From assembly GCA_947361355.1 (NCBI GenBank), contig CANAIR010000002.1:46976-110975 (forward strand): a DNA stretch of 64,000 nt. The letters are read 5' to 3'. Below, in pieces: positions 8,524 through 26,893 of the stretch. Origin of the DNA: an uncultured Clostridium sp. (GTDB lineage Bacteria; Bacillota; Clostridia; TANB77; CAG-465). The position numbers and the translations under genes were made by a program. Positions within the stretch are counted from its first letter, which is position 1. Each line of letters begins with the position of its first letter. The notes beneath the pieces were generated by a model. It saw nothing but the letters and a program-made list of their open reading frames with translations, ran no database searches and was not told where the DNA came from.

Positions 8524-9765
8524 ATGTATAAAAATAAAATAGTGGGAATTGTAATAATTTTGATATTATGTACAAGTACAGTAATTAGTACTCCTTTTAT
8601 GTATAGTCCAAGAGAAAAATTTAAAACAGAAAATTCTAGTATAAGTACAGTAGCAAATGTTATTACTCCAGAATTTCAGTTTCAATCACAGGCACAGTAT
8701 TTGATTGAACCGGTTACAAATACTGTATTATATGCAAATAATGAAAATGAAAAACTACTTCCAGCATCAGTTACAAAGGTTATGAGTTTACTTTTGATAA
8801 TGGAACAAATAGATAATGGAAAACTTAAATATACTGATATGATAAAATGTAGTGAAAAGGCTTCTAAAATGGGTGGTTCACAAATATGGTTTAAACATGG
8901 TGAAGAACTTTCAGTTGAAGACTGCTTGAAAGCAATATGTGTTGTTTCTGCAAATGATTGCGTTGTTGCTATGGCAGAGCATATATCTGGAAGTGAAGAA
9001 AATTTCGTTAAAATGATGAATGAGAAGGCAAAAGCTTTAGGAATGGAAAATACAAATTTTATGAACTGTCATGGAATTGATGAAGATAATCATTATACGA
9101 GTGCAAAAGATATAGCAATAATGTCAAGAGAGTTAATTATAAACCATCCAGATATTTTAAAATATACATCAATTTGGATGGATACATTAAGAGACGGTAC
9201 ATTTGGACTTACAAATACAAATAAGCTAATAAGATTTTATGATGGAGCTACAGGATTAAAAACGGGTTCAACATCTCAAGCTTTGTTTAATTTGGTTGCA
9301 ACTGCAACAAGAGATAATACCACTTTTTTATCAGTAGTTATGAAAGCTCCATCATCAAATATAAGAAGTGAAGAATCAACACAACTATTAAACTATGCTT
9401 TTTCTAATTTTGGAATTGAAAATATATATGAAAAAGAAGCAGTAATAGAGGATAAAAAGATAAATAAGTGTATTAGTGATAATGCACAAGTAGCAATAAA
9501 AGACAATATATCAACATTAGTAAATAAAGGGCAAAAAGTAGAGGTAGAACAAAATATAACATATAATGATAATATTACAGCTCCATTACAAAAAGGGGAA
9601 TTTATTGGAAAAATAGAAGTATTTGACAAGAATACAAAAGAAAAATTAGGAGAAAGAGATTTGATTTGTTTAAATGATATAAAAAAGTCTGATTTTAAAG
9701 ATTATATTAAGAAGATGGTAAATATTATGGGGAGTAAAAATGATGTAAAAAATGGCAATGTTTAA
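8524..9765 (+). CDS. D-alanyl-D-alanine carboxypeptidase (PBP5/DacF-like serine peptidase S11)
   Basis: SVTK (SxxK), SAND (SxN) and KTGST (KTG) motifs are in the correct order and spacing. N-terminal signal peptide and C-terminal PBP5 domain are present. Confidence 0.85.
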   Translation: MYKNKIVGIVIILILCTSTVISTPFMYSPREKFKTENSSISTVANVITPEFQFQSQAQYLIEPVTNTVLYANNENEKLLPASVTKVMSLLLIMEQIDNGKLKYTDMIKCSEKASKMGGSQIWFKHGEELSVEDCLKAICVVSANDCVVAMAEHISGSEENFVKMMNEKAKALGMENTNFMNCHGIDEDNHYTSAKDIAIMSRELIINHPDILKYTSIWMDTLRDGTFGLTNTNKLIRFYDGATGLKTGSTSQALFNLVATATRDNTTFLSVVMKAPSSNIRSEESTQLLNYAFSNFGIENIYEKEAVIEDKKINKCISDNAQVAIKDNISTLVNKGQKVEVEQNITYNDNITAPLQKGEFIGKIEVFDKNTKEKLGERDLICLNDIKKSDFKDYIKKMVNIMGSKNDVKNGNV

Positions 9766-9793
9766 ATTTATTTTTTTTTTTTGTTGTATATTA

Positions 9794-9826
9794 ATGAGTG
9801 AAGTTTTTCACTCATTTTTTTATATC
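9794..9826 (+). terminator. Rho-independent terminator after the carboxypeptidase gene
   Basis: ATGAGTGAA…TTCACTCAT stem followed by a T-run. Confidence 0.6.
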
Positions 9827-9976: not shown

Positions 9977-10023
9977 ACAAAAAGGATTAACATTTTTAAT
10001 AAAAAAATTGGAGGTTGAAACAT

Positions 10024-11055
10024 ATGATAGGAATGAGTCAAATTAAAAAGAAGACTTTACAAGGTGTAGCAATTGGAGGTGCAATAGGAGTTGTTGGTAT
10101 AGGACTAACTTTGTTTTTCTCATATAAAACAATAAAGTCATATCAAGATGGTAGTAATAAAAATTACCAAAAAAATTATACAGCAAATGTTGCTGTGCTA
10201 ACAAAAGATGTTATTCAAGGTGAAATAATTACAGATGATATGATAAAAAATGTAAGAATTAATAAAAGTACAGTTCCAGAGGGTGCACTTACATCTGGCG
10301 AGATAGCAGGTAAAGTAGCAAAATATAGTATTGCTGCAAATGTACCTCTTATAAGTTCAATGATTACAGAAGAGATTATTGATTCTGATATAAGAAGCCA
10401 AGAAGTAAATACAATAGTTATGCCTAGTGATTTAAATGTTGGTGATAGTGTTGATATTAGAATAATGTATCCTAATGGTACTGACTATATAGTTTTAGCT
10501 CAAAAAAGAGCAGAACAAATTGAAGGTCAAACTATGTGGTTACAATTATCTGAGGATGAGAGACTATTATTAAATTCAGCTATTGTAGATTCATTTTTAA
10601 CTCAAGGTACAAAATTATATGCAACAAAATATGTTGATCAAGATGCTCAAATAAAAGCTTCTGATGATGCAGCAGATAAAGCAGAAGGTTATGTATCTGA
10701 AAGAATAAAGGATAAAATGACTGATATACAAAGTGCAGATGAAGTAGAATTAACTACTATAATATTTGATTTAATTAAAGAGTATAAAAATTTTGCTACA
10801 ACTGTAACAAGAACAAAAGAAAATTACCAACCAAATACATATGTAATGGATGCAATGAAAAATAATACTAATATTTTAGAACAAGCAAAATCAAAATTAA
10901 GTGAGGATGCTAGAACAAATATTGAAAATGCTATAAAAGATTATGCTAATTCTAATGAAGAAGAATATAGTAATGTTGTATCTGGTGCAAAAGAGGCTAT
11001 AAGTAATCAAAAAACTCAAAGAGATCAATTAGTTAATGGAACAGTTGTAGAATAA
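10024..11055 (+). CDS. cpaB: Flp/Tad pilus assembly protein CpaB/RcpC-like (N-terminal TM + SAF domain)
   Basis: N-terminal TM segment, then a SAF-domain-like region (…VAVLTKDVIQGEIITDDMI…VPEGALTSGEIAGKVAKYSIAANVPLISSMI…). Long acidic C-terminal region. GGAGG RBS precedes the ATG at 10024. Confidence 0.65.
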   Translation: MIGMSQIKKKTLQGVAIGGAIGVVGIGLTLFFSYKTIKSYQDGSNKNYQKNYTANVAVLTKDVIQGEIITDDMIKNVRINKSTVPEGALTSGEIAGKVAKYSIAANVPLISSMITEEIIDSDIRSQEVNTIVMPSDLNVGDSVDIRIMYPNGTDYIVLAQKRAEQIEGQTMWLQLSEDERLLLNSAIVDSFLTQGTKLYATKYVDQDAQIKASDDAADKAEGYVSERIKDKMTDIQSADEVELTTIIFDLIKEYKNFATTVTRTKENYQPNTYVMDAMKNNTNILEQAKSKLSEDARTNIENAIKDYANSNEEEYSNVVSGAKEAISNQKTQRDQLVNGTVVE

Positions 11056-11083
11056 TAATAAAGACAATATAGGAGGAATATAA

Positions 11084-11797
11084 ATGCAAGTAATAGGGTT
11101 GATAGGTTATGTTGATAAATATGATTTTGTTATAAACCTTGCCAAGACAATAAATATTATGGGAAAATCTGTCTTAGTAGTTGATGCTACGTTGGATAGA
11201 AAATTAAAATATGTTATACCATCATTAAGTAATGTTGGTAGATCATATATAACTCAATATAATGATATAGATTTTGCTTTAGGTTTTGATAGTATGCACG
11301 ATGTAGAAAACTATTTAGCTGAACAAAGTATAAATATAGGATTATATGATTTTATATTAATTGATATAGACAGTCCAAAATCATTTGAATTCTTTAGGAC
11401 AAGAGGTATGGATAAAAGATGTTTCTTTATTGATTCTAGTGTTTTATCTGTTGCTAAAAATAAAGATATAATAAAGGCTGTTAGAATATATAGTCAAGAT
11501 CCTGATAATATACAAATGACAAAAATATCATATAAAGGAGTAATGTCAAGGGCAGCAGAAGATTACTTTAAAAAACAAATTGAAGAATATGGAATTAAGT
11601 GGCAAGAGCCAGAATATGAATTTCCACAGGATGAAATGGATAAAATTGCTGATATTGATTCACAATATAGTGGTTTAATTGATGTAAAAAAACATACTAA
11701 AATGTATTTAAATTCATTATCTGACTTAACTGCTGAAATTATAGGAGATGTTACTAGTAAGGAAGTAACAAAGGCAATTAAAAGGAGGAGAGACTAA
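11084..11797 (+). CDS. Degenerate ParA/MinD-fold protein (TadZ/CpaE-like, no intact Walker A)
   Basis: Strong RBS. Sits between cpaB-like and tadA-like genes. ParA-like beta-alpha pattern (VIGLIGYVDK…, DFILIDIDSP…) but lacks the GKGGxGK[ST] P-loop. Confidence 0.45.
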   Translation: MQVIGLIGYVDKYDFVINLAKTINIMGKSVLVVDATLDRKLKYVIPSLSNVGRSYITQYNDIDFALGFDSMHDVENYLAEQSINIGLYDFILIDIDSPKSFEFFRTRGMDKRCFFIDSSVLSVAKNKDIIKAVRIYSQDPDNIQMTKISYKGVMSRAAEDYFKKQIEEYGIKWQEPEYEFPQDEMDKIADIDSQYSGLIDVKKHTKMYLNSLSDLTAEIIGDVTSKEVTKAIKRRRD

Positions 11798-12612
11798 TGG
11801 CAAGAGTAGTATTTTGGAGTCCTGATGCTACTATGACAGGTAATACTCATACTGCAGTAGCTGTTAGTAGTTTAATGGGCATTGAGCATAAGGCAAGCTG
11901 CCTTTTAATGCAAGGTAATTTTGATTCTAAAAAAATAGAATCTTCATATACAATGTATGAACAATTAAGAGAAAGTGGAGCTTTGGAAAATGCAAACTTG
12001 GGTGTAAGTGCATTAATTAGATTGGTAACAAGTAATAAACTTACATCTGATGCTATACAAAACTATGCAAAACCCGTTTTAAAGGGAAGGTTAGATTTAC
12101 TTTATGGTATGACAGCCAAAGATAAAGACGGATATAAAGATTTGGTAAATAATTTGCCATATATTACAAGAAAAGCGGCAGAAATATATGATTTAGTATT
12201 TATCGATTTGCCAAAAACAGCAAATTATAAATATATAAAAGATACTTTGGCTGATTCTGAAATAGTTGTTTGTACAGTTAATCAAGACGTTGTAAAACTA
12301 GATCAATTTTTTGAAAAAGTTCAAAAGATAGATGAACTTAAAGAAAAAAATGTTATTTATGTGATTTCAGATTATGAAAATAAATCTAAATTTAATATAT
12401 CAAATATTAAAATAAAATATAGAATAAAAGATGAAATATATGCTGTACCACATAATTTCGTTTTTACAGATGCCTGTAATTCAGGAGATGTAATAAATTT
12501 CTTTTACAAAAATATCAATTCAGATCCAAAAGATTATAATGGATATTTTATAAGTAAAACAAATGAAATAGTTTCAAAAATATTTGAATTATCAAAGTTA
12601 AAAGATAATTAG
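11797..12612 (+). CDS. Degenerate ParA/MinD-fold protein (TadZ/CpaE-like pseudo-ATPase)
   Basis: VVFWSP…TGNTHTAVAVSS replaces the deviant Walker A. DLVFIDLP is Walker-B-like. Translationally coupled, with its ATG overlapping the upstream stop. Confidence 0.5.
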   Translation: MARVVFWSPDATMTGNTHTAVAVSSLMGIEHKASCLLMQGNFDSKKIESSYTMYEQLRESGALENANLGVSALIRLVTSNKLTSDAIQNYAKPVLKGRLDLLYGMTAKDKDGYKDLVNNLPYITRKAAEIYDLVFIDLPKTANYKYIKDTLADSEIVVCTVNQDVVKLDQFFEKVQKIDELKEKNVIYVISDYENKSKFNISNIKIKYRIKDEIYAVPHNFVFTDACNSGDVINFFYKNINSDPKDYNGYFISKTNEIVSKIFELSKLKDN

Positions 12613-12641
12613 TTTTTGAATAAAAATAAAAAAGAGGTGAT

Positions 12642-14537
12642 ATGATGACAGTTGCATTTATATTTAATATCTTATTAATACTTTTACTTATCGGTTTAGT
12701 TGTTAGCTTTTTTGTATACAAAATAAAAAAATCCGATAGTAAAGAAGCAACTGATGAATTATCAAGAGAAAGAGAAAAATACAGCATTGAAAAAATGAAA
12801 GCATTCATAAAGAAACAATTTGATGAGATTACTAGAATGAATTTGTATGATCTTGCACTTTCAGAAGAAGAATTTGAAAGAAGAAAGAATGTAAAATATG
12901 AGCTAAAAAAAGCTTTACGTGGTGCAGGATATGCAGATAAAAATGACAAAAAGTATGTTAAAACTTTAATGTTTGATTTATTAAGAAATAATTATAAAGT
13001 AAACAGTTTTAATATAAATAATGCAATTCCTTTTGATAATTTTGACTCTTTATCTTCACAAGATAAATTTGAGATATTAATGCACGTTTATAAAAAAGCA
13101 TATAAAACTGATGCTTTAACACAAATAATTACTAAATATAATTTGGATATGCCAAAATATGAGTTTGATCCTGAGGTCCCATCTTATGTTATTACTTCAA
13201 GAGAAATAGATCAAATATTTGCTGCTGAAATAACAGATGATACGCTAACTTTTGATGATAAACTTGAAATAGTAGTACAAAGAATTTATCAAGAATATAA
13301 GGGTTATAGTGTAGTAGATGATATTCGTGATATGAATATAGATGGTGTATCTGGTGGTGTATCTGGTATTCCACCTTCATTCCTTGATCAACTTACTGAT
13401 ATGGATGACTATTTAGAACAAATGGAAGGTAGAAAGCTACCAATGTCATATGATAGTGTATGGATATTCTATAAAGGTAAAGCTACGTATTTATCTTTTC
13501 TATCGTTTGGTAGTGAAACAGAATTAAAAAGAGTATGTCAAAATATATATAAATATAATAATCCAGGTCAATTGTCTGAATCTGTTGGTTATAAAATAAA
13601 CGAAATGAAAGATGGTTCCCGTGTAGTTGTACTTAGACCTAATTTTTCTGAGTCTTGGGCATTCTTCGTAAGAAAATTTGCTCCACCTACTCTTATATCT
13701 GCAGAACAATTGCTTGTTCATGAAAATAAAGAAACAGTAATTGAATTATTAAAATATTTAATAAGAGGTGCAAGAGTAACAGCTATAACTGGTGAGCAAG
13801 GTTGTGGTAAAACAACACTTCTAATGGCTATAATGAAATATTTATATCCTACAATTACAATTCGTGTACAGGAAACTGCATTTGAATTGCATTTAAGAAA
13901 AATTTACCCATACCACAATATCTTATCTTTAAGAGAAACTGATACAATTAATGGTCAAGAAGGTCTTGATGTTCAAAAGAAAACAGATGGTGGTGTTAAC
14001 ATCCTTGGAGAGGTTGCAACTGATCCCGTTGCTGCTTGGATGATTCAAATGGCTCAGGTTGCATCTAAATTTACATTATTTACGCACCATGCTAAAACAT
14101 TCCCTAATTTAATAACTGCACTTAGAAACTCGCTTTTGAAAATAGGTATGTTTAATTCTGAAAATGTTGCAGAAGTGCAAGTTGTACAAGTTATAAACTT
14201 TGATATACATTTAAAAAGAGGTACTGATGGTACAAGATATATTGAAAGAATAACTGAGTGTATTCCACTTGAAAAAGAATTTAAATATAATAATGACTAT
14301 AAAAAAGTAAATGACATGGATAAAAAAATGGATAAGTTTATGGATAATGCTGTTGAATATTTTACTCATATGACTCAAACTAGTAATTATACATATAAAA
14401 ATATAGTTGAATTTGTAGATGGTGCTTATGTATTTAGAAATCCTATTAGTGAAGAGAATATAAAAGCAATGAGAGACAATATGTCACCAGAAGATGTTAA
14501 ATCATTTGACAACTTCATAGATATGGCATGGAGGTGA
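12642..14537 (+). CDS. tadA: Tad/CpaF-family secretion ATPase (TadA-like) with an N-terminal TM helix and ~350-aa extension
   Basis: Walker A AITGEQGCGKTT. CpaF-like motifs DGSRVVVLRPNFSESWAFFVRKF and NILGEVATDP…FTHHA. A hydrophobic N-terminal segment precedes a long, poorly conserved domain. Confidence 0.85.
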   Translation: MMTVAFIFNILLILLLIGLVVSFFVYKIKKSDSKEATDELSREREKYSIEKMKAFIKKQFDEITRMNLYDLALSEEEFERRKNVKYELKKALRGAGYADKNDKKYVKTLMFDLLRNNYKVNSFNINNAIPFDNFDSLSSQDKFEILMHVYKKAYKTDALTQIITKYNLDMPKYEFDPEVPSYVITSREIDQIFAAEITDDTLTFDDKLEIVVQRIYQEYKGYSVVDDIRDMNIDGVSGGVSGIPPSFLDQLTDMDDYLEQMEGRKLPMSYDSVWIFYKGKATYLSFLSFGSETELKRVCQNIYKYNNPGQLSESVGYKINEMKDGSRVVVLRPNFSESWAFFVRKFAPPTLISAEQLLVHENKETVIELLKYLIRGARVTAITGEQGCGKTTLLMAIMKYLYPTITIRVQETAFELHLRKIYPYHNILSLRETDTINGQEGLDVQKKTDGGVNILGEVATDPVAAWMIQMAQVASKFTLFTHHAKTFPNLITALRNSLLKIGMFNSENVAEVQVVQVINFDIHLKRGTDGTRYIERITECIPLEKEFKYNNDYKKVNDMDKKMDKFMDNAVEYFTHMTQTSNYTYKNIVEFVDGAYVFRNPISEENIKAMRDNMSPEDVKSFDNFIDMAWR

Positions 14538-14541
14538 TAAT

Positions 14542-16599
14542 ATGGTTACAAACATAGCAATAGGTTTAGTAGCAATCTCCGTAATTGGTCTTCTTGCACT
14601 TTTTATTTACTATAAAATTGTTCGTCACAAATATATAAAAAATTCTGCTCTTTATTCTAAAGATAGACTTGTAGTAAAAGAAAAGAAAAGTAATAAAGAC
14701 ACATTAGATAAAATATATCAAATCGTATATTTAACTTTTGTAAAAATGCCTATTATAAAATACTATACAAAAAAGACAAGATTAAAATTAGAAATGACAA
14801 ATGATTATACAGAATATGAGTTAAGAAGAAGAACTGGTAAGACTATGTTAACTGCTATTATATTTATGTTTGTATCATTATTTGTATTCTTAAATTTAGT
14901 TAATGATTTGTATATGTCATTAATTGTTATAGTAGGTGTATTAATAGTAACAGAAAAGGTAATAGATATAGGAATTACTTCTGTATCGGAAAAAATACTT
15001 AAACAAATGCCAGAAGCTTTTACTAGTATAAGGCATGCCTTTCATGAGCATGGAATGGTAGAAGAATCTTTTAATTCTGCTATTGATGATTTAGGTGAAA
15101 GGGAGGTAGTACCACAACTTAGAAGAATTAAGGAAGCTATGCTTGCTGAAAATCCTGAAATAGAACTTGAAAGATATTATGACACAGCACCAAATAGATT
15201 TTTAAAATTATTTGCTGGAGTATCATATTTAACTTTGGATTTAGGTGATAGAAAAGTTGATGGAACATCTGTGTATCTTAAAAACTTAAATAATATATTA
15301 AGTGAGATACATCTTGAAATCTTAAAAAGAGATAAAATTAATTATATGTTTAGAAGCTTAACTGTAATTGCAGTAGCTCCACTTGTAGCGATAAAACCTT
15401 TGCAAACATGGGCTGAATCAAACTTTCCAGCACTACTTAATTTTTATGATAGTAGTATAGGATTTTTTATGCAGTCTTTGATTATAGTTTCAATATTTAT
15501 TTCATATTTAATGTTAAGAATTGTTAAAGAAGACGTTGAAGAAATAAAATTTGATAGGGTTTCTGGAGTTAAATGGCAAGAAAAAGTCTATAAATATCGT
15601 TTTGTAAAGATTATAGTTGATGCTTTTAAATCAAGAGAAAATACAAGAAAAAGAAGAAATGAAGAAACACTTATTAAAAATACAAATGCGTATCTTACAA
15701 TAGAATGGTTATATGTTAATAAACTAACAGCTGCATTAATAGCTTTTCTATTATCATTATTACTTTTATTAAATATGCAGCATATTGATGTTTCGGGGGT
15801 ATATAATAAGATTAGTGATGAGTTTTTATCTTTTGGTAAGCTTAGTCCTACACAACAAGCAGCAGCTGATGCTATAAATAGAACAGACAATGAATATATT
15901 GAAAAATATAAAGGCAAAAAAGTAACAAAAGAGCAAATAGCAAGCGAAATGGTTGATCCTGTTACTGGTGAAGTTGACTCAACAGCTGTTGATAGAATAT
16001 ATACAAAAATAGAAACAGTTAAAAATTCGTACTTAAAATTTTGGCAAGTACTTACAGCTTTGATAATTGCAGTAGTAGCATATTTTATTCCAAGTCTTGT
16101 ATTAGTTATAAAAAATAAAATAAGAGAAATGGAAAAAGAAAATGAAATTATGCAATTCCAATCAATAATATTGATGCTTATGTATATCGATAGAGTTGAT
16201 GTTCAAACCATTCTTGAATGGTTAGCAAGATTTTCATATGCTTTTAAAGAACCAATTTCTACTTGTCTAAACAATTATGAATCTGGAGCAGAAATAGCAC
16301 TTGATGAGTTAAAAGAAGCTGTACCATATAAGGATTTCCAAAGAATAGTAGAACAATTAATTTCTGCTGTTGAAAGAATACCTGTTAGAGCTGCTTTTGA
16401 TGAACTTGAAACTGAAAGAGCTTATTTCCATGAAAGAAGAAAAGAGGGAAATGAAAGATTGGTTCAAAAGAAAGTTACAATAGGAAAAGTACTTGGATTT
16501 GCTCCAATGGTATTACTTATAGGTGGTTATTTAGTAGCACCACTTATGATAGTAAGTATAATGCAAATGATGAGTTACTTTAGTAACATGTCATTTTAA
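14542..16599 (+). CDS. Polytopic membrane protein, probable TadB/TadC (T2SS-F domain) fusion
   Basis: 685 aa with multiple TM helices separated by cytoplasmic helical domains, sited immediately after the tadA-like gene. The T2SSF assignment comes from position and architecture, not from a recognised motif. Confidence 0.55.
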   Translation: MVTNIAIGLVAISVIGLLALFIYYKIVRHKYIKNSALYSKDRLVVKEKKSNKDTLDKIYQIVYLTFVKMPIIKYYTKKTRLKLEMTNDYTEYELRRRTGKTMLTAIIFMFVSLFVFLNLVNDLYMSLIVIVGVLIVTEKVIDIGITSVSEKILKQMPEAFTSIRHAFHEHGMVEESFNSAIDDLGEREVVPQLRRIKEAMLAENPEIELERYYDTAPNRFLKLFAGVSYLTLDLGDRKVDGTSVYLKNLNNILSEIHLEILKRDKINYMFRSLTVIAVAPLVAIKPLQTWAESNFPALLNFYDSSIGFFMQSLIIVSIFISYLMLRIVKEDVEEIKFDRVSGVKWQEKVYKYRFVKIIVDAFKSRENTRKRRNEETLIKNTNAYLTIEWLYVNKLTAALIAFLLSLLLLLNMQHIDVSGVYNKISDEFLSFGKLSPTQQAAADAINRTDNEYIEKYKGKKVTKEQIASEMVDPVTGEVDSTAVDRIYTKIETVKNSYLKFWQVLTALIIAVVAYFIPSLVLVIKNKIREMEKENEIMQFQSIILMLMYIDRVDVQTILEWLARFSYAFKEPISTCLNNYESGAEIALDELKEAVPYKDFQRIVEQLISAVERIPVRAAFDELETERAYFHERRKEGNERLVQKKVTIGKVLGFAPMVLLIGGYLVAPLMIVSIMQMMSYFSNMSF

Positions 16600-16671
16600 A
16601 AGAGGTATAAACATTATAGTTTGATAATGTTGTACATATATTAAAACATAAAATAAGGGGGGAATTTTATT

Positions 16672-17163
16672 ATGGATAATGCTCAAAAGGCAATCATGAT
16701 TGGTGTTGGTTTGTTTATTACTATTATTGTTATTGCAGCTGTTATGCTTATAACAGGTATGGGACAAGATATGTTACAATCAGGTCAACAACAAGTATCT
16801 AACATTTCTGCTAGTTTACAAGCGCAACTAACTTCAGATTTTGATGGAACAACTGTAACTGGTGCACAAGTTATAACAGCAGTTAAAAGATATTATCAAG
16901 ATGATACAATGGCAATATATGTTATAAATGGTACTAATCAAAAAAGTTATGGTAAAATAAATGCTACTGGTTATGCAAAAGGAACATATGACCAAGTTAC
17001 ATCAGTTGCAGCAAATAATTCACCAGAAAAAGTTGGAACTTTAACTGATACATCTGCTGCTAATACAGCAAATTATGTACCAAACTCAGCTAAATATAAA
17101 GCTAACATTTTAAAGATAAAAGGAACTAATGATGTTGTTGGTATTTGTTTTGAAAAAGACTAA
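16672..17163 (+). CDS. Pilin-like protein (short polar leader + N-terminal hydrophobic helix), paralog group A
   Basis: MDNAQKAIMIGVGLFITIIVIAAVML…; motif …FDGTTVTGAQVITAVKRYYQDD… is shared with the ORFs at 17354 and 18593. Strong RBS. Confidence 0.5.
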   Translation: MDNAQKAIMIGVGLFITIIVIAAVMLITGMGQDMLQSGQQQVSNISASLQAQLTSDFDGTTVTGAQVITAVKRYYQDDTMAIYVINGTNQKSYGKINATGYAKGTYDQVTSVAANNSPEKVGTLTDTSAANTANYVPNSAKYKANILKIKGTNDVVGICFEKD

Positions 17164-17353
17164 TCAACAAACATATCATTTTTATTATTACAACAAGGTA
17201 TATATTAAATTATATACCTTTTGTAATATAATTATTATAAATATAATTTAAATTATAATTTTATATATATTAAAATATCTATTATTTATATGTTTTAAAA
17301 ATTACTCATATCAATGAATAATTTTTAAAGCACATATTTTAAGGAGGAATATT

Positions 17354-17812
17354 ATGGATGAAAGTTCACTTATGCGAGCCTTAACAGTTGGTGTTGGTGT
17401 ATTTATAGCAATAGCAACAATAACAGCAGTATTATCGTATTATAATACTGCAAAAGATATGGTACAAGCAGTTGGTACTGGGGCAGACTTTGATAGAGAA
17501 TATTCAAATTATATAGAAAATACATTATTAAAAACACAAAATGTTTCATATATAACTGGAAATGATGTTAAAAATTTACTTAACTATTTTTATAAAGATG
17601 AAAAAGTTCAAATAAATATAGCATTAATAACACCATTGTATTTGGATAATGATGATAATTTATTATCATCAAATTTATCTGGAAATAATGTGAATAATCA
17701 TGAAAAGTTATATAATTCATTGAGTTCTAAAATAGTACCTACACAAAAATTTAAATTGGAAAGACAAAATACTTCTGGAAAATTAATTATAAATTTAAAT
17801 GGTATAAAATAA
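17354..17812 (+). CDS. Pilin-like protein, paralog group A
   Basis: MDESSLMRALTVGVGVFIAIATITAVL…; motif …ITGNDVKNLLNYFYKDEK…; strong AGGAGG RBS. Confidence 0.5.
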   Translation: MDESSLMRALTVGVGVFIAIATITAVLSYYNTAKDMVQAVGTGADFDREYSNYIENTLLKTQNVSYITGNDVKNLLNYFYKDEKVQINIALITPLYLDNDDNLLSSNLSGNNVNNHEKLYNSLSSKIVPTQKFKLERQNTSGKLIINLNGIK

Positions 17813-17823
17813 AGGAGTAGATT

Positions 17824-18573
17824 ATGGAGGATACATTACAAAGAGTATTTGCAATTATAATTGCTGTTGTTATATTCTTTTTATTACCACTATATATAGC
17901 TTTTGAAAAAAAAGATGATATTTCCTATTCACTTGCTTTAAGAATTACTACAAATTTTGTAGATAATGTGAAAAGCAAAGGATATTTAAGTAAGGAAATG
18001 TATGACAATTTCATTTCAAGGTTATCAATAACTGGTAATGTATATGATATAAAACTTGAACATATAGCGAAAAAATATAATCCAGTTATATATTCTTATG
18101 ATAATGACTATAAACAAATAAAAGAAAAATTTGATTATAATACTTATAAAGAGCAGTTTGAAAATGGTCAGATTAACTCTGCTACTGGAATTTATAAAAA
18201 CTTAGTATTAGCTTATGAGCTATATGAAGTTAGATATAATGAATCAAATATTATAGAGGCATTAGATTTGAATGAACAAATTATAAGACGTGTAGAAGAA
18301 GGGACATCTGAGGCTGAAAATTATAAGTCTGTAAACAGAGATAATATTCCTGTTATATCTGGAATATATCGAACAGATGAAAATAAAGCCTTATATCCTA
18401 TGAGTAAAGGTGATGAATTTACAGTTATTATAAAAAATACAAATACTACTGTTGCGAGTATATTATTTAATACTTTAACTTTTGGGGCTAATACAGGTAA
18501 TGATACTAAGGTATATATTAATTATGGCGGTTCTATACAAAGTGAAGAATATAGAAAAACAGTATTAGAATAA
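17824..18573 (+). CDS. Pilin-like protein, paralog group B (homologous to the N-terminal ~200 aa of the 715-aa protein)
   Basis: N-terminal hydrophobic helix. …TTNFVDNVKSKGYLSKEMYDNFISRLSITGNVYDIKLE… aligns to the 19480 ORF (…TTNFVDEVINCGYIDQQMYDNFIQKLSITGNLYDIQLE…). Confidence 0.5.
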   Translation: MEDTLQRVFAIIIAVVIFFLLPLYIAFEKKDDISYSLALRITTNFVDNVKSKGYLSKEMYDNFISRLSITGNVYDIKLEHIAKKYNPVIYSYDNDYKQIKEKFDYNTYKEQFENGQINSATGIYKNLVLAYELYEVRYNESNIIEALDLNEQIIRRVEEGTSEAENYKSVNRDNIPVISGIYRTDENKALYPMSKGDEFTVIIKNTNTTVASILFNTLTFGANTGNDTKVYINYGGSIQSEEYRKTVLE

Positions 18574-18592
18574 CTATTGGAGGTGATTTATT

Positions 18593-18985
18593 TTGGATTT
18601 GGCAGCTAATAAAGCTATAACAATTGCTACCGCAGTTTTTATAACTATTATAATAACATCTGGTGTGTTATTTTCAATTGGGCAAATGCAAAGTATATAT
18701 TCACAAGTGTATGAAACAGATATTAATATTCAAAATAGATTTGGAGAATTTGAATCATTTGATAATACTGAAAAGACAGGTATAGATGTAATGAATGTGT
18801 CTAAAAAGTACAGAGATTCAGATTTAGTAAATATATACATTTTAGGAAGCAGTGAAAAATTAAATACTTCTGCTGGTATTAATCGTCTTCCATCAAGGCT
18901 TGGTACAAATCCAGGTGAGGTATTATATAAAAGTACTGTAAAAGATGTAAATGGAAGAATAACAATAGAATTTACAAAAAAATAG
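18593..18985 (+). CDS. Pilin-like protein, paralog group A (TTG start)
   Basis: MDLAANKAITIATAVFITIIITSGVLF…; GGAGG RBS 9 nt before the TTG. Confidence 0.45.
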   Translation: MDLAANKAITIATAVFITIIITSGVLFSIGQMQSIYSQVYETDINIQNRFGEFESFDNTEKTGIDVMNVSKKYRDSDLVNIYILGSSEKLNTSAGINRLPSRLGTNPGEVLYKSTVKDVNGRITIEFTKK

Positions 18986-18997
18986 AGGTGAAATATT

Positions 18998-19462
18998 ATG
19001 GAAGATTCAGCATTTGATGCGTTATACACAGGTACATATGTATTAGTATTTATTATAGCTCTTACTATAACACTTTATTTGTTTAACTCTATTATAGACT
19101 TTTCAGACTTAGCATATGAATTTAATACAAAAGTTGAAGACAATTCTACCATAATTGATGCTCCAGTTGAGGCAAATAGATTACTTTCTGGTGAAGAAGT
19201 ATTATCCTATTATTACAATTATGTTAAGCATGATTTATATTCCGAAAAGGTATCACCAGTTAATTATAACGTAAATATACAAATTGGTAGAACTACAAAC
19301 GAGCTTGCTGGTATGTCACTTTTAGAAATTTCACAAGCAATCGGAATGGAAAATAAGTTTATTTTAAGATACAAAGGCGCAAAATATGGCGATGATGGTG
19401 TAAAAAATATAGATATAGATATAGTGAAAGCAACACAAGAACAAATAGATGCTTTAGTTTAG
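18998..19462 (+). CDS. Pilin-like protein (N-terminal hydrophobic segment)
   Basis: MEDSAFDALYTGTYVLVFIIALTITLYLF…; AGAGGTGA RBS. Confidence 0.45.
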   Translation: MEDSAFDALYTGTYVLVFIIALTITLYLFNSIIDFSDLAYEFNTKVEDNSTIIDAPVEANRLLSGEEVLSYYYNYVKHDLYSEKVSPVNYNVNIQIGRTTNELAGMSLLEISQAIGMENKFILRYKGAKYGDDGVKNIDIDIVKATQEQIDALV

Positions 19463-19479
19463 AAAGGTGTGAAATATAA

Positions 19480-21627
19480 TTGAAGGATAATTTAAGTATT
19501 ATTGTAACTATGCTTGTTTTTGTTATTTTGATAGTTATATTTCCATTATATAACTACTTTGAAAGACAAGATGATATGTCATATAATATTGTTTTAAAGT
19601 CTACGACAAACTTTGTAGATGAAGTTATAAATTGTGGTTATATAGATCAACAAATGTATGATAATTTTATTCAAAAATTATCAATAACAGGAAATTTATA
19701 TGATATCCAGTTAGAAGCCCATAAAAGAACGTATACTAAAGATCCATATAATATGCGCTTAGATACTTTTATTGAGCAGTATAATATTGATTATAATAAT
19801 GATATTTTTGATCAAGGTACTGGTGTTACTAAACAAAGTAATGTAAGTGTAGATAATAAAGTGTTAAAAAATGGCGTTTATTACCTAAATGTTGGAGATC
19901 AAATATATGTAAAATTGAAAAATAGTGGAACTACTATGGCTGGCGCAATATTTAATATAATAGTTCCAACTTCTAAGCAAGAAAGAGTTACAGTAAATTA
20001 TGGTGGAATTATAAAGAATAACGCATGGGAAAAACAAGATATTAGTAATTTGTTTCAAAAAGACATTTATACAGAAATATATGTAGATAAGGCAGTTACA
20101 CCTGGACTTACTAATAAAATTAATGATAGACCTACATATTCATTAAATGAAAGTAGTGAAATAAAAGTAGTAGTTAAAATATTAAATTACGAAAAATCCC
20201 AGGAATCAAATATAGCAAGTATTTTAAAAGACAATTTAAAAATAACAGGATTTGAATCTAAAAAAACAATATTGCCTACAAGTGTAATAAAAAGTGCAAG
20301 CTCACCAGAGTGGGTAGCAACATATAATGTAAATAGTATTTCATCTTCTGTTGAAGAATACTTTGGTGGAAATACATATAAAACATGTCAAGTAGAATTA
20401 GAACCTGATTTAATTCAAGGAAACTATTTTAAAAATAGTTTAACCTCATCTGATACATTTGTAATAAAGAAAAATAACACAGATACTGCTACACCTGATA
20501 TTACAGGTGCATATCTAAATGGTAGTTCTTCAGTTGTAAATAACATTGAAATTGGCAGTACTGTAATTTATTATTTGAATTATTATGATTCTACATTAAT
20601 TGCATCAGCAAATGAAATGAAAAACTATATATCAGCTACTAATTTTACTTATGATGACTTGGTTGTTCAACATGATAGTGGTTCCAAAAGATTTAAGCTT
20701 ACTTTTTCAAATGTAAGCGGTGAACCAGATGTTAGAATAAAAATAAATGTTGCAGGTGATTGGGCCCAATACTCACAAGGTGGTACAATAAAAAAAGTAG
20801 GGACACTTTCATCTCGTGAATCAACTCTTAAGTTTTTACCAAAAAATTATACAACACCTGGTATATATAAATTTGTTATACCTTCTGATGGTAGATATAG
20901 ATTAGAAGTTGTAGGTGCAAATGGTGGTGGAAATGCTAACTATTCCTCAAATAGGGGAAGTAGAGGCGGAAAAGGTGGAAGAACCGCTGGTACTATTGCA
21001 CTTACCAAAGGGCAAGTTTTATACATTGTTGTTGGTGGCTCAGGTAAGTCTGCAATTTCTGGCTCTGTTGGTACAGGTGGTTATAATGGTGGTGGAAACG
21101 GTACTAAATCATTAACTGATAACACAAAATTTGGTTTTGGTGGCGGTGGAGCTACTGATATAAGATTGTCAGATACTAATATCTCTAGTCCAATTGATGG
21201 CTTAAGCAAGAGAATTATTGTTGCTGGCGGAGGCGGAGGCGCTGACGATATTGATATTGATGGAACAACAAATTCTGGAGTACTTGGTAGTATAGATGAT
21301 GGTTCAGGAGGATTTGGAGCTGGAGGATTAAATAATGGTGGTTATGGTTTTGTTGATGGTTCAGTATCAGGTGGTGCTAAACCAGGAACAACAACATCAG
21401 GATTTAGTCTAGGAATAGGACAAAATGCTTCTTCTAGTAATGATGCTGGAGGTGGAGGCGGAGGCTATTATGGTGGCTTTGCATCTCCAACTTCGAATTC
21501 AAATTCAGGTGGAGCTGGTGGTTCGGGATACATAGCAGCAGGATTTATAGACATTGTAGGCGCTAATGGAGTAAATTCATCAACTATTGGAAATGGAAGT
21601 GCTTCTATAACATATATGGGAAAGTAA
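19480..21627 (+). CDS. Large pilin-like protein with a ~270-aa glycine-rich (polyglycine-motif) C-terminal domain; candidate tip/adhesin subunit
   Basis: TTG start after AAAGGTG. N-terminal hydrophobic helix and paralogy to the ORF at 17824. The C-terminal domain is full of spaced GGxGG/GGGGG motifs (GANGGGNAN, GGKGG, GFGGGGAT, AGGGGGADD, DAGGGGGGYYGG, SGGAGGSGY). Confidence 0.55.
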   Translation: MKDNLSIIVTMLVFVILIVIFPLYNYFERQDDMSYNIVLKSTTNFVDEVINCGYIDQQMYDNFIQKLSITGNLYDIQLEAHKRTYTKDPYNMRLDTFIEQYNIDYNNDIFDQGTGVTKQSNVSVDNKVLKNGVYYLNVGDQIYVKLKNSGTTMAGAIFNIIVPTSKQERVTVNYGGIIKNNAWEKQDISNLFQKDIYTEIYVDKAVTPGLTNKINDRPTYSLNESSEIKVVVKILNYEKSQESNIASILKDNLKITGFESKKTILPTSVIKSASSPEWVATYNVNSISSSVEEYFGGNTYKTCQVELEPDLIQGNYFKNSLTSSDTFVIKKNNTDTATPDITGAYLNGSSSVVNNIEIGSTVIYYLNYYDSTLIASANEMKNYISATNFTYDDLVVQHDSGSKRFKLTFSNVSGEPDVRIKINVAGDWAQYSQGGTIKKVGTLSSRESTLKFLPKNYTTPGIYKFVIPSDGRYRLEVVGANGGGNANYSSNRGSRGGKGGRTAGTIALTKGQVLYIVVGGSGKSAISGSVGTGGYNGGGNGTKSLTDNTKFGFGGGGATDIRLSDTNISSPIDGLSKRIIVAGGGGGADDIDIDGTTNSGVLGSIDDGSGGFGAGGLNNGGYGFVDGSVSGGAKPGTTTSGFSLGIGQNASSSNDAGGGGGGYYGGFASPTSNSNSGGAGGSGYIAAGFIDIVGANGVNSSTIGNGSASITYMGK

Positions 21628-21636
21628 GGTGAAAAT

Positions 21637-22878
21637 GTGAAAATAACAGATTTAGCTTTAGTATTTATTGGAATCATATTACCAATTATAATAGTAGTAT
21701 ATATAAATGTTTCTTTTACAATTAAAGCTCAAGAACAAGAAATGTACTATCAAAATATAATTGATATAGCAGCGCAAGATGCAGCAAATCAAATGAAGGA
21801 AGTCGAAAATGATGATTCAAATGTAGATTATGGATATTCTGGAGTAGATAACCAAAAAATAAGTGTTAATGCACAAATAGCTGTTGACACATTTTTAAAT
21901 AATTTATATAATAACTTTAATATAAAAGGTAATGAGGCGGCGCAAAAATATTTACAACTTTTTGTACCTGCAATTGCAATTATAGATTATGATGGTGTCC
22001 AAATATCATCAGTTGAATCCTCAAAAGATATGACAGATACAGAAGTACAAAGTGGAAAAATAAATACATATAATAGTGATTGGAGTGTTACAAAGCATGT
22101 ATTAAAACCAAAAAGATACTATACATATACTTATTCTATAATTAGAGAAGGTGGAGCAAGCGGAATTGAATATAAAATGGTAGATGGAATATCTTCTAAT
22201 CCAAATGCTGTTTCATATCATGAAATAGAATTTACTATGGATGATTATTTAACACATAGACAGTATGAAAAAAATGATACTAAAGAAAGCCAGCCAGAAA
22301 GTTTTTATTTAACAGATGGTAAGTATAATGATAGTCTTGTAAGTGGTATAAGAGCTAGTGAAGCGTCAAATGCAGCTTCATTTAAACAGGAAGTAATACA
22401 AAAACTTTCAAGTAAACGTGAAGATACAATTGCAAATACTTTAATAAAAGAAATGACATATGCAACAAATGCTAATAACTCATATGCTAGAAGTGCAGGA
22501 ATTACGTATAATTTCTCATTTCCAACAACAACACATGAAGAATTATATGGAACAATAAAAAATGTAGGATTTATGGCCTTTGTACAGGGGTTATCAGTTG
22601 GTACAAAATATTTGAACACAAAAGCATACGGACTAAATAACTTAGGTCTTGCAACAAGATACTATTTTACAATTCCTAATATAGATTCAAAATATAAGCT
22701 TAATTTATATCATAAAGATACAACTTGTCCAGAGTATGTGGTTTCTAAGGTAGATGATATATCACCTAGATATGCTATAACAAAACAACAAGCTGCATCA
22801 ATGAAAGTTGGATGTACAATTAATGATATAGAATTAACATTCCAAGGATTTTATCCTTGCCCTATATGTAGTCCATAA
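21637..22878 (+). CDS. N-terminally anchored protein with a Cys-rich C-terminus (CPEY…GCT…CPICSP); last gene of the pilus-like operon
   Basis: GTG start 5 nt after AAGGTG. Hydrophobic N-terminal helix. Four Cys residues lie in the last ~60 aa. Confidence 0.5.
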   Translation: MKITDLALVFIGIILPIIIVVYINVSFTIKAQEQEMYYQNIIDIAAQDAANQMKEVENDDSNVDYGYSGVDNQKISVNAQIAVDTFLNNLYNNFNIKGNEAAQKYLQLFVPAIAIIDYDGVQISSVESSKDMTDTEVQSGKINTYNSDWSVTKHVLKPKRYYTYTYSIIREGGASGIEYKMVDGISSNPNAVSYHEIEFTMDDYLTHRQYEKNDTKESQPESFYLTDGKYNDSLVSGIRASEASNAASFKQEVIQKLSSKREDTIANTLIKEMTYATNANNSYARSAGITYNFSFPTTTHEELYGTIKNVGFMAFVQGLSVGTKYLNTKAYGLNNLGLATRYYFTIPNIDSKYKLNLYHKDTTCPEYVVSKVDDISPRYAITKQQAASMKVGCTINDIELTFQGFYPCPICSP

Positions 22879-23140
22879 TATGTATAAATATATTAAAAGT
22901 AAAGGAGAGTATTTAATTACTCTTCTTCATTTTTATATAATTACTTGTTATTTAAGTATTAAAACTAAAAGGTAAGAAAATTCAAAATATAGGTTATATA
23001 TTATAAAAATAGAATAAAATATTAAATATAAGATGAAAATAAAATTAATTATATTGTAAAAAAAATAATTTTGATGTAAAATATAAATAGATTAATAAAA
23101 AAATATGTAAACAAGGGGAGAGAAAAGTATGATAAAACTA

Positions 23141-25585: not shown

Positions 25586-26614
25586 TTGAGAAAATATAAT
25601 TTTTTATTCTATAATTTTATGTGTTTTTTAATCATAATTACAATTGCCCTTTTTATAATAAATTTGTTAAGTGAAATAGGTAATAATAAAAAAGAAGAAG
25701 AAAAAGTATTAGAGCAAAAAGAAGAAAAACATACAATAGAATATAAAGCTAATGAGACTATAAGAATAAAGTTTTCAAAAACAGGGGAAATAGTAGCTAT
25801 GGATATGAATGATTATCTAAGAGGAGTAGTTCCATCTGAAATGTCTCCAAGTTATGAAATAGAAGCATTAAAAGCGCAAGCATTGGTAGCTAGAACATAC
25901 ACATATAAAAAAATAAGTGGAGGTGGCGAAGGTCAAGGCGCTGATATGTGTGATAATTTTGCTCATTGTCAAGCTTTTTATACAAAAGAAAAGTTATTTG
26001 AAATTTGGAGTAGAAAAGGTTATGACGAAAAAACTATTTTTGAATTTTGGGATAAAGTAAATGAGGCAATTGTTTCTACACAAAATGAAATTATAACATA
26101 TAATGGTGAATGTATAAAAGCTTTTTTTCATGCTAGTAGTCCACAAAAAACTGAAGATATAAGTCAAATATGGGGTGGAGAGACTTTACCGTATTTAAAA
26201 TCAGTTGAAAATATTGAGGACGAAGGTTACGTAAATAGGACTAGTAAAGTTGAAATTTCATTTGAGGATTTTTTGAATAAATTAAAAGAAAATAATAAAG
26301 AATTTAATGAGGTAACTAATGAAAATATAAAAGATACTAAAATAAGTGATTATACAATAAGTGGAAGAGTAAAAAATATTGAGGTATCAGGAATTAAAGT
26401 TAATGCTGAGAAGCTTAGAACTATGTATGGTCTTAAATCTACAAATTTTACAATAGAAATAATAGATAATAAGATCATATTTAATGTAATAGGCTATGGT
26501 CATGGAGTTGGTCTTAGTCAAGTAGGCGCAAATTATTATGCAAAAAGTGGAATGAAATATGATGAAATTATAAAACATTATTATACAGGTGTTGAAATAA
26601 AAAAATTAAATTAA
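25586..26614 (+). CDS. spoIID: Stage II sporulation protein D (SpoIID lytic transglycosylase)
   Basis: SpoIID-family signature (…LRGVVPSEM…EALKAQALVARTYTY…). Synteny spoIID-spoIIQ-spoIIID-mbl as in Clostridia. TTG start. Confidence 0.85.
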   Translation: MRKYNFLFYNFMCFLIIITIALFIINLLSEIGNNKKEEEKVLEQKEEKHTIEYKANETIRIKFSKTGEIVAMDMNDYLRGVVPSEMSPSYEIEALKAQALVARTYTYKKISGGGEGQGADMCDNFAHCQAFYTKEKLFEIWSRKGYDEKTIFEFWDKVNEAIVSTQNEIITYNGECIKAFFHASSPQKTEDISQIWGGETLPYLKSVENIEDEGYVNRTSKVEISFEDFLNKLKENNKEFNEVTNENIKDTKISDYTISGRVKNIEVSGIKVNAEKLRTMYGLKSTNFTIEIIDNKIIFNVIGYGHGVGLSQVGANYYAKSGMKYDEIIKHYYTGVEIKKLN

Positions 26615-26635
26615 ACAAATGAAAAGGAGAATTGT

Positions 26636-26893
26636 ATGAAAATTAGATTCAATAATATTATAAAAAATAAAGAGGCATTAAAAAAAGATAGATTAAATGG
26701 TGAAATGAGTAAAAAAGAATATATTAAAGAAAAATCTTCAAATAATAATACAAAAAAGAATAAAGAAATAATAAATAGAAACGTTTTGAAAGAAGAAAAA
26801 CAAAGGAATATATCTGATACTTATGTAACACCAATATTTAAAGTATATAAAAATGGACGGAGACATTATAAAATATGTACCAAATGTTGTTAA
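26636..26893 (+). CDS. Small Lys-rich ORF with strong RBS, overlapping the start of the M23 peptidase gene; possibly the true 5' end of the spoIIQ-like gene (frameshift)
   Basis: AAAAGGAGA RBS; overlaps the next ORF by 41 nt in a different frame. Confidence 0.3.
   Translation: MKIRFNNIIKNKEALKKDRLNGEMSKKEYIKEKSSNNNTKKNKEIINRNVLKEEKQRNISDTYVTPIFKVYKNGRRHYKICTKCC

Follow-up and report, generated by a model that had tools for sequence, protein, structure and literature searches.

The 64,000-nucleotide stretch of DNA analysed here, which we refer to as the window (contig CANAIR010000002.1 of assembly GCA_947361355.1, positions 46,976 to 110,975, from an uncultured Clostridium sp.), carries at positions 10015-22878 an operon of 12 co-directional genes in which a putative Tad-type machine is followed by seven N-terminally anchored, pilin-like proteins. 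A reading of the sequence alone had singled out five of these (16672, 17354, 17824, 18593 and 18998, named here, like all genes, by their first position) as small pilin-like genes with non-canonical leaders, and all five open reading frames (ORFs) are present on the plus strand where that reading had placed them. They form operon genes 6-10, and two larger members, 19480 and 21637, are genes 11-12. Positions are given in window numbering, and every operon gene lies on the plus strand.

The window has the low GC content (~22-33%) of a Clostridia-type genome. Within the operon the gaps are short, and a Shine-Dalgarno-like sequence precedes each gene (GGAGG/GAGGTG, 6-10 nt before the start, for each of the five small genes). 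The gene order runs from a CpaB-like protein through two TadZ-like proteins, a CpaF-like ATPase and a platform with 8 transmembrane (TM) segments to the anchored proteins. By order, lengths and TM counts, as read from a published table and not by sequence comparison, the operon is, gene for gene, the TANB77 pilus cluster of Kim et al. (2024; Nat Commun 15:10726, PMC11680825), a cluster of 10-14 genes that 122 of the 129 species of TANB77, an order of uncultured gut bacteria, possess. The upstream limit and the machine genes are as follows (aa, amino acids; locus counts refer to the related operons described below).

9793..9816, plus strand: terminator-like hairpin (10-bp stem, then a T run) after a dacB-like gene; upstream operon limit
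10015..11055, plus strand: CpaB/RcpC-like SAF-domain protein with one N-terminal TM segment (Pfam SAF, E 8.3e-8); 77 of 86 loci
11084..11797, plus strand: TadZ-like protein of degenerate ParA/MinD type; 79 loci; equivalent of protein 928 of Kim et al.
11797..12612, plus strand: TadZ/CpaE-like protein; 81 loci; equivalent of protein 929
12642..14537, plus strand: CpaF/TadA-family secretion ATPase of 631 aa that carries an N-terminal TM helix of its own; identity 59-88% across 86 loci
14542..16599, plus strand: 685-aa polytopic membrane protein with 8 predicted TM segments, presumed TadB-TadC fusion platform

The machine genes

The ATPase 12642 links the operon to known filament machines by sequence. 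In a phmmer search of the PDB its best match was CpaF (E 7.4e-8), over residues 275-547 (~273 residues), where the P-loop GEQGCGKTT and the downstream segments ILGEV and THHA line up with the corresponding segments of CpaF. A profile of the ATPase family likewise returned CpaF (1.1e-9), with VirB11 (2e-3) and the archaeal structure 2oap (0.056) well behind it. As 12642 scores under both the T2SSE cutoff of Pfam and the TadA cutoff of NCBIfam, it is a highly divergent member of this ATPase family. ATPases of type IV filaments are normally soluble and are recruited to the platform. The N-terminal TM helix of 12642 (residues 1-30) is kept in all relatives, and Kim et al. also list one TM helix for their protein.

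The remaining machine genes are less readily matched. Against TIGR03177 (pilus_cpaB), 10015 reached E 6e-7 and 28.9 bits, below the cutoff of 71; it corresponds to protein 927 of Kim et al. Neither operon gene 2 (11084) nor gene 3 (11797) has a Pfam match. Protein 928, which 11084 equals in position and size, has been reported to be structurally TadZ-like (PMC11680825), and the family profile of 11797 found only a marginal Soj/ParA match in the PDB (residues 1-49, E 0.057). In the platform protein 14542, an internal repeat of residues 144-203 against residues 548-609 is weak (hhalign P-value 0.027, probability 1.8%). The sequence-only reading had taken the small genes for pilin-like, and the CpaF-matching ATPase, the SAF/CpaB-type first gene and the description of the same cluster in the literature support pilin-like subunits of a Tad-type machine.

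Conservation and the published TANB77 cluster

We fetched 86 operon loci, surveyed the subunit genes in 84 of them and added three more distant relatives (L087-L089). The operon is collinear in the fetched loci and conserved across the 86; relatives of the ATPase occur in at least 491 species-representative genomes. The 80 loci that were kept come without exception from metagenome assemblies of uncultured gut-type Clostridia/Bacillota, such as Clostridium sp. CAG:1219 and Candidatus Merdicola. The cluster of Kim et al. is essentially confined to TANB77 genomes (PMC11680825).

Table 1 of that study lists a CpaB-like protein (358 aa, 1 TM), a TadZ-like protein (231 aa), a CpaE-like protein (280 aa), a TadA/CpaF-like protein (640 aa, 1 TM) and the 693-aa, 8-TM protein 931, which Foldseek likens in its two halves to TadC and TadB; structural homology to CpaB, TadZ, CpaE, TadA and TadC/TadB is reported for the cluster 927-938. 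Seven proteins follow, 932-938, of which six are single-TM proteins and 934 has a signal peptide. Proteins 932-937 were called pilin-like from context, size and topology, sequence and structure searches being uninformative there, and the N-terminal quarter of 938 is TadE/PilV-like in structure (PMC11680825). The words prepilin, peptidase, TadV, cleavage and leader occur nowhere in the text of that paper. The locus and the pilus cluster are thus already known; how the subunits are processed is unanswered in the literature searched. What we add, as read from sequences, would be the grouping of the subunits into classes, the assignment of 16672 as major subunit, the class A junction and the lack of a nearby A24 peptidase gene, each set out below.

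The window operon and the cluster of Kim et al. have in common their hosts, uncultured low-GC gut Clostridia, their single copy and a run of seven single-TM proteins that ends in a large one. The reference genome of Kim et al. (CAG-245) falls in another sub-clade than the window; the subunit set of the window reads A-a-B-a-a-B-C, against A-A-s-A-A-B-C in the reference, and its last gene encodes 413 aa, against 621 aa. In the distant sub-clade that includes the reference type (L048-L086), the subunit run contains a ~143-aa member with an ordinary basic signal peptide (MKKIAIFF...), as third or fourth gene after the platform (e.g. L060, 15735-16163); the sub-clade of the window lacks it.

A still more distant form of the whole system, reached through a remote homologue (P0374), lies at 1-20438 of L087 and occurs also in L088 and L089. 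Its GC content is 36%, its ATPase and platform are 39% and 27% identical to those of the window, and the gene preceding it encodes an NlpC/P60 hydrolase. An additional TM peptide of 38 aa is encoded ahead of the pilin gene, and there is a second ATPase-like gene, which is truncated (226 aa).

Seven anchored proteins in three classes

The genes downstream of the platform, together with two hairpins, are listed here; an arrow marks the putative cleavage position.

16672..17163, plus strand: class A pilin-like protein, candidate major subunit, 163 aa; junction MDNAQKA↓IMIGVG; N-terminus MDNAQKA-IMIGVGLFITIIVIAAVMLITG
17195..17220, plus strand: stable stem-loop followed by a U-rich stretch, terminator- or attenuator-like, directly 3' of the candidate major pilin gene
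17354..17812, plus strand: class A pilin-like protein, putatively minor, 152 aa; junction MDESSLMRA↓LTVGVG; N-terminus MDESSLMRA-LTVGVGVFIAIATITAVLSYY; orthologues in 36 loci
17824..18573, plus strand: class B subunit of 249 aa; its N-terminus, MEDTLQRVFAIIIAVVIFFLLPLYIAFEKKDD, lacks [GAS] at -1 (MEDTLQR-VFAIIIAVVIFFLLPLYIAF when split at the leader)
18593..18985, plus strand: class A pilin-like protein, putatively minor, 130 aa, TTG start; junction MDLAANKA↓ITIATA; N-terminus MDLAANKA-ITIATAVFITIIITSGVLFSIG
18998..19462, plus strand: divergent class A-type protein, 154 aa; junction MEDSAFDA↓LYTGTY; N-terminus MEDSAFDA-LYTGTYVLVFIIALTITLYLF; orthologues in 33 loci
19480..21627, plus strand: class B modular subunit, 715 aa; N-terminal ~185 aa homologous to 17824, C-terminal ALK/LTK-type glycine-rich domain
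21637..22878, plus strand: class C subunit of 413 aa, MKITDLALVFIGIILPIII; closes the run in most loci, where it is conserved
22902..22927, plus strand: terminator-like hairpin that closes the operon

All five small proteins begin, as had been noted, with a polar leader, here of 7-9 residues, followed by a hydrophobic helix of ~20-25 residues, and a Kyte-Doolittle scan finds in each a single hydrophobic segment starting at residue 1-4. The view of the run as five such genes is right for the five but too narrow as a limit, since 19480-21627 and 21637-22878 have the same N-terminal anchor and extend it to seven. Of the other 46 ORFs in the window, about 13 start with a hydrophobic segment, which makes an unbroken run of seven unlikely to be due to chance (rough estimate ~1e-4). 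Across the 84 loci, 559 N-terminally anchored ORFs taken from downstream of the platform gene fall into three unrelated classes (A, B and C) plus one ordinary signal-peptide protein.

Relationships among the five proved broader than first described. That 16672, 17354 and 18593 are paralogous is confirmed by blastp (16672 to 18593, E 1.4e-9; 16672 to 17354, E 8.8e-6) and by profile-profile probabilities of 98-99% (against 16672, 98.3% for 17354 and 99.0% for full-length 18593). The downstream motif said to unite them is also present in all three, as FDGTTVTGAQV..KRYYQDD in 16672, FDNTEKTGIDV..KKYRDSD in 18593 and YITGNDV..NYFYKDE in 17354. When the N-terminal 32 residues are removed, the motif region still aligns in hhalign, at 94% (94.3%) for 16672 and 18593 and at 40-54% for the pairs with 17354. 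The family of 18998 aligns with those of 16672, 17354 and 18593 at 92.8, 95.4 and 90.6%, respectively (91-95% probability), over the first 75-80 residues with 16672 and 18593 and over ~124 columns with 17354; because it aligns with all three, four of the five proteins form one superfamily. The homology of 17824 to the N-terminus of the 715-aa protein 19480 is equally well supported (blastp E 4.8e-28 over 245 columns; hhalign 100%). The division into two paralog groups is therefore better recast as a class A superfamily of four genes, 18998 among them, and one class B gene.

Searches for known relatives returned none. No Pfam or NCBIfam family matched any of the five genes at E<=1, Flp, TadE, the archaeal pilin N-terminal domain and archaellin included; PHROGs gave no match for 16672 or 17824; and neither phmmer with 16672 nor its 58-sequence profile found a pilin, archaeal pilin or archaellin chain in the PDB. 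A Pfam match of two homologues to a His1 virus capsid protein (E 0.009-0.03) was dropped, as we judged it to reflect hydrophobic-helix similarity.

The class A leader junction

Directly before their uncharged hydrophobic domain, the class A proteins have a conserved junction, [K/R/D/E]-Ala↓[Ile/Leu], which reads KA↓IM in 16672, RA↓LT in 17354, KA↓IT in 18593 and DA↓LY in 18998. The modal leader length is 7 residues, and the core leader, M-[D/E]-N-A-x-[K/R/D/E]-A-[L/I]-x-[I/M]-[A/G]-G, is drawn from the families of all four genes. By inspection and a regular expression, and not by FlaFind, [KRDE][AGS][hydrophobic] was located at the boundary in 238 of 334 unique class A N-termini, compared with 18 of 217 control N-anchored ORFs from the same loci. 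Position +5 in the 334 class A N-termini (84 loci) is V, G, A, L, I or F and never D or E, and in class B it is I, V, F or L. The combination of Gly(-1) and Glu(+5) is absent from all five proteins, just as the sequence-only reading had stated.

These features can be set against what is known of prepilin signals. All prepilin peptidases need G, A or S at -1, a charged residue at -2 is critical for the archaeal enzymes, and an acid at +5 is near-universal in bacteria and optional in archaea (PMC4371748); FlaFind-predicted sites of PibD-dependent archaeal pilins given in the same review are KA↓IS, RA↓LS, DA↓VS and RA↓VS. For bacterial PilD, Imam et al. (PMC3244431) give 'glycine or alanine' at -1, and Tad systems are held to derive from archaeal pili. 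The four class A proteins have the archaeal class III signal form, and 17824 (QR↓VF) fails to show it; an archaeal-type class III peptidase, one of the processing routes raised earlier, is accordingly the best fit for the four but not for 17824. To call the leaders non-canonical is correct as regards the missing +5 acid but not as regards position -1, where bacterial prepilin peptidases accept Ala too. Careful alignment, which had been named as a way to detect an overlooked cleavage motif, brought out the archaeal-style junction in class A and no bacterial G(-1)/E(+5) motif. Class A thus carries a canonical archaeal-style class III signal, in which only the missing Glu5 is foreign to bacterial pilins.

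The 16672 family as candidate major subunit

The first gene after the platform belongs to class A in 83 of 84 loci. In the family of the window's first gene, 16672, mean pairwise identity is 90% over residues 1-33 and 41% over the rest, and 14 of 16 invariant columns fall within residues 1-25; this pattern of a conserved core helix and a variable surface is that of an abundant polymerising subunit. We found 816 homologues, all from gut metagenomes or Clostridia assemblies and all unnamed or 'hypothetical' save one evident misnaming. A search with the family profile gave 1019 matching clusters at 50% identity; the best 150 of the 1019 are all family members, and no known pilin family is among the matches listed. 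In relatives the 16672-type gene is often tandemly duplicated.

The operon's only long intergenic gap, of 190 bp (17163-17354), lies just after 16672. The AT-rich hairpin region in it spans 86 nt and has a folding energy of -17.9 kcal/mol (z = -5.4 against shuffles), which suggests partial termination that would raise the major-subunit transcript over those of the downstream genes. We looked for an Flp-sized ORF in the gap and found none. Because of the contrast between residues 1-33 and the rest, the diversity of the family, its tandem duplication and the gap hairpin, we read 16672 as the major subunit.

Class A sequences also turn up in unusual contexts among the relatives. One protein (P0349) is a class A pilin with a ~300-aa C-terminal extension that has a sub-threshold FGE-sulfatase-like match; another (P0356) joins a DUF4190-like multi-TM N-terminus to two copies of the class A head; and a third (P0361) places a class A head behind a soluble, non-TM N-terminus. 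We considered P0361 as a phage tail-fibre protein and rejected the idea, as PHROGs returned nothing and Pfam a single spurious sub-threshold match (FF domain, E 8e-4).

Predicted structures

AlphaFold2 (AF2) models of 16672 and 17824 were built with 58-sequence alignments and compared by Foldseek with 350,542 PDB chains and BFVD. The model of 16672 (mean predicted local distance difference test score, pLDDT, 84.9) has a helix at residues 3-57 followed by a beta-rich head, and that of 17824 (pLDDT 82.8) a helix at residues 2-52 followed by a beta-rich domain. The order of elements is the same in both: a long N-terminal helix, a short strand, a helix of ~11 residues and the beta-rich head, with the ~11-residue helix of the class A model covering the shared TG.DV...K.Y motif. 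The prediction of a lollipop pilin fold is therefore borne out at the level of overall architecture, which is pilin-like, but not by any Foldseek match of the fold itself.

Class B and class C

Class B proteins share the consensus M-x-D-x-L-x-x-[V/I] ... F-[L/F]-P-[L/M]-Y ... E-[R/K]-x-D-D; in the family of 17824 the residues P22, E28, D31 and D32 are conserved. We identified 246 homologues of 17824, many with a C-terminal dockerin (PF00404). In 19480 the same N-terminal module is joined instead to a glycine-rich domain (PF12810, E 4.3e-31, residues 469-689), and in a further homologue to Laminin_G_3. As these C-terminal modules are extracellular, the topology is N-in/C-out, and class B proteins appear to behave as modular subunits with exchangeable C-terminal binding modules. 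Residues ~457-713 of 19480 also have matches in several families of phage proteins whose function is unknown (PHROGs; lowest E 8e-27), and the glycine-rich module thus occurs on pilus subunit and phage proteins alike.

Class C, with the consensus MK[IL]xx[LF]A[VLI]IFIIIILP, has 21637 as its sole member in the window; by position, 21637 is the equivalent of 'pilin 938' of Kim et al.

Genomic setting

Sporulation genes surround the operon: YqfD and SpoIIM were identified by Pfam, and SpoIID-, SpoIIID- and MreB-like ORFs by reading translations by eye, SpoIID being Pfam-annotated at the same position in related loci. In three of these (L004, L005 and L006) Pfam places the operon between a gene for a PBP5/DacB-type carboxypeptidase and spoIID, and the same flanks, read from translations, are found in the window at 8524-9765 and 25586-29144. 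In the distant sub-clade (downstream in L060 and L084) the ORF after the operon is SpoIVB-like by inspection only. The recurring sporulation neighbours may be a coincidence in a small sporulating genome.

A second adhesin system of this genome segment, which depends on sortase, lies further along, at 38628-43160. A sortase gene (PF04203, E 6e-27) is followed there by the gene for a surface protein of 1257 aa, in which a thioester domain (TED) is combined with ten SpaA-type Ig-like repeats and a hydrophobic anchor at the C-terminus.

Discussion

The five small genes, together with 19480 and 21637, would specify the subunits from which a type IV filament of a highly divergent Tad type is built, with 16672 as the major subunit, 17354, 18593 and 18998 as minor class A subunits and 17824 and 19480 as class B subunits. 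We think it reasonably probable that class A consists of type IV pilins whose class III signals are of archaeal type and are cut after the Ala by an A24 peptidase whose gene is unlinked, that 16672 is the major subunit and that the class B proteins are modular adhesive subunits. Precursors would enter the membrane in N-in/C-out orientation through Sec and the signal recognition particle (SRP), and an A24 aspartic prepilin peptidase, with its gene elsewhere in the genome, would then cut off the class A leader of ~7-9 residues at [K/R/D/E]-Ala↓[Ile/Leu]. By homology, the ATPase and the platform would extract the subunits and stack their invariant helices into a hydrophobic core that lacks an acid at +5, a feature shared with many archaeal pili, and the variable heads and class B modules would point outward and mediate adhesion. 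Beyond the ATPase homology and the sequence patterns, all of these mechanistic steps are ones that we infer.

A number of results weigh against this account. To our knowledge TANB77 bacteria have never been cultured, and the filament, a processed N-terminus and the peptidase have none of them been observed. The platform 14542 has no sequence match in Pfam or the PDB, even as a 26-sequence profile, so that its TadB/TadC identity is presumed, following Kim et al., our own sequence tests having been negative or weak. The heads match no solved pilin (best Foldseek E 1.0 and 0.024, probabilities <=0.08), and the family profiles match no pilin or archaellin in the PDB, Pfam or NCBIfam. There is no A24 peptidase in the 64-kb window, where the multi-TM ORFs are DagK, SpoIIM and ABC-2 permeases, no recurrent multi-TM ORF or A24 gene within 10 kb of the operon in the 86 loci, and no A24 peptidase in the more distant L087-L089. 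The junction motif is present in only 16 of 81 class B and 1 of 49 class C N-termini, and these two classes have no candidate site. Finally, the leader M-D/E-N-A-x-K-A is almost invariant (column identity 0.99 over residues 1-7), and in the distant lineage the aligned -1 residue is Pro (MEENTSRP-LII) or Val (MNENVMKV-LWI), in others Val or Gly; an invariant whole leader, and Pro or Val at -1, fit poorly with a site defined only by a small residue at -1.

Much of this would be expected if the same Tad-like machine built the same filament from subunits whose leaders are never cleaved and which polymerise with their full N-terminus, the third possibility that had been raised at the outset. The TANB77 filament would then need no prepilin peptidase and would keep its M-(D/E)-N-A-x-K-A sequence, or maturation would fall to a non-A24 enzyme; we hold such an arrangement possible but rather unlikely. 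The acid at position 2 and Lys6 might in that case replace the charge pairing of Glu5 with the N-terminal amine of bacterial pili. Uncleaved subunits would account for the lack of a linked A24 gene in the window and in 89 related loci, for a leader that is conserved to the same degree as the helix (among 120 homologues, with identities down to 46%, almost all keep MDNAQKA unchanged), for the retained acids (E in 72% and D in 27% at position 2 of class A, D3 in 89% of class B), for Pro or Val at -1 in distant relatives and for the lack of a plausible site in classes B and C. Short, conserved leaders are nevertheless no bar to cleavage: MDNAQKA resembles the type IVa leaders MKAQKG and MNAQKG, which are also short and conserved and yet are cleaved. 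The [KRDE]-A↓[LI] junction, moreover, matches archaeal predicted sites and is 9-fold enriched over control anchors, and reviews (PMC4371748) describe removal of the signal peptide by prepilin peptidase before incorporation into the pilus. Nor does the missing gene carry much weight. According to Denise et al. and Imam et al., one prepilin peptidase can serve more than one system, and tadV is found in most tad loci but not in every one; because a peptidase may be shared or unlinked, and 64 kb of the genome are covered, its absence nearby is weak evidence. Imam et al. (PMC3244431), on the other side, had already noted Clostridial tad-like loci without a recognisable prepilin motif.

The remaining explanations take the small proteins out of the filament altogether. 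Some or all of them might be membrane-anchored accessory parts of the machine (PilN/PilO- or GspL/M-like) or surface proteins that the machine exports. An N-terminal TM segment followed by a helix and an alpha/beta domain is also the architecture of PilN/PilO-type proteins. The missing pilin fold match, the lack of a class III motif in classes B and C and the conserved distant-clade member with an ordinary signal peptide (MKKIAIFF...; protein 934) are compatible with this. We regard it as improbable for the set as a whole, as the invariant helix, fast-evolving head, first position after the platform, duplication and hairpin of the 16672 family indicate an abundant polymerising subunit, and class B carries outward-facing, adhesion-type modules; it could still hold for individual minor members. 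Signal peptidase I, which the sequence-only reading had offered as a processing enzyme, would make the hydrophobic segments Sec signal peptides and the mature proteins soluble, secreted or wall-associated. 16672 does have small residues at -3/-1 after the hydrophobic stretch (ITGMG↓QD), but the GMG motif is not kept in the other paralogues or the distant clade, and the n-region is neutral or acidic, not basic. As the supposed signal peptide is of TM length (~24 residues) and is the most conserved part of the protein (90% against 41%), we give this explanation hardly any credence.

The pilin account, with cleavage of class A by an unlinked A24 enzyme, turns a context-based annotation into testable biochemistry, in the form of a likely major subunit (the 16672 family), a putative cleavage after Ala7 (K-A↓I) and adhesion modules in class B. 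The TANB77 pilus cluster has been linked to better response to cancer immune-checkpoint therapy, and protein 938 is reported to activate dendritic cells through TLR4 (PMC11680825); the subunit assignments are useful for designing antigens, antibodies and recombinant 'mature' proteins. A Tad-type machine whose pilins have archaeal-style signals, no Glu5 and no linked peptidase, in a gut order of 129 species (PMC11680825), also bears on the evolution of Tad systems from archaeal pili and on the universality of leader cleavage.

Comparison with known systems

With the Tad/Flp (type IVc) systems of Aggregatibacter, Caulobacter and Bifidobacterium the window system shares a CpaF/TadA-type ATPase, its closest solved relative, CpaB/RcpC- and TadZ-like genes, a TadB/C-type platform (according to the literature) and larger TadE/F/G-like anchored proteins. 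It has no secretin, as expected for a monoderm. It differs in its putative major subunit, which is of 130-165 aa with a globular head in place of the ~60-aa Flp, in the absence of a +5 acid and of a linked tadV, in the presumed fusion of TadB and TadC and in an ATPase with its own TM helix. Compared with the Flp/Fap family as such (~50-80 aa), the proteins are longer, at 130-249 aa, and lack the G↓xxxxE[YF] motif, and the gaps between the genes contain no small Flp-like ORF. The Clostridial 'no Flp_2' tad-like loci of Imam et al. (2011; PMC3244431) have similarly divergent tadA, tadC, tadZ and rcpC and genes of unknown function without a PilFind-type motif; they are reported there with a tadV, which the window locus lacks.

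Archaeal PibD-processed pilins (Ups and Aap of Sulfolobus, PilA1-6 of Haloferax) resemble class A in their charged -2 residue, Ala at -1, Ile, Leu or Val at +1 and the dispensability of Glu5, and in PilA1-6, as in class A, a near-invariant hydrophobic domain is common to paralogous pilins. Class A differs from them in that neither its sequences nor its profiles resemble any family of archaeal pilins or archaellins, and in a leader that is acidic or neutral and not basic; the host, moreover, is bacterial, the machine is nearest to bacterial CpaF, and no PibD/FlaK-like gene was seen.

The type IVa-like pilins of Streptococcus sanguinis offer a parallel for class B. Their class III signals are canonical, with Glu5, and PilD cleaves them. 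Class B differs from these pilins in having no recognisable cleavage motif and no sequence relation. In S. sanguinis, PilB is described as a modular pilin that takes a direct part in adhesion, and PilA/PilC as minor pilins whose complex binds glycans. Both S. sanguinis PilB/PilC and class B combine a pilin-like module at the N-terminus with a binding module at the C-terminus.

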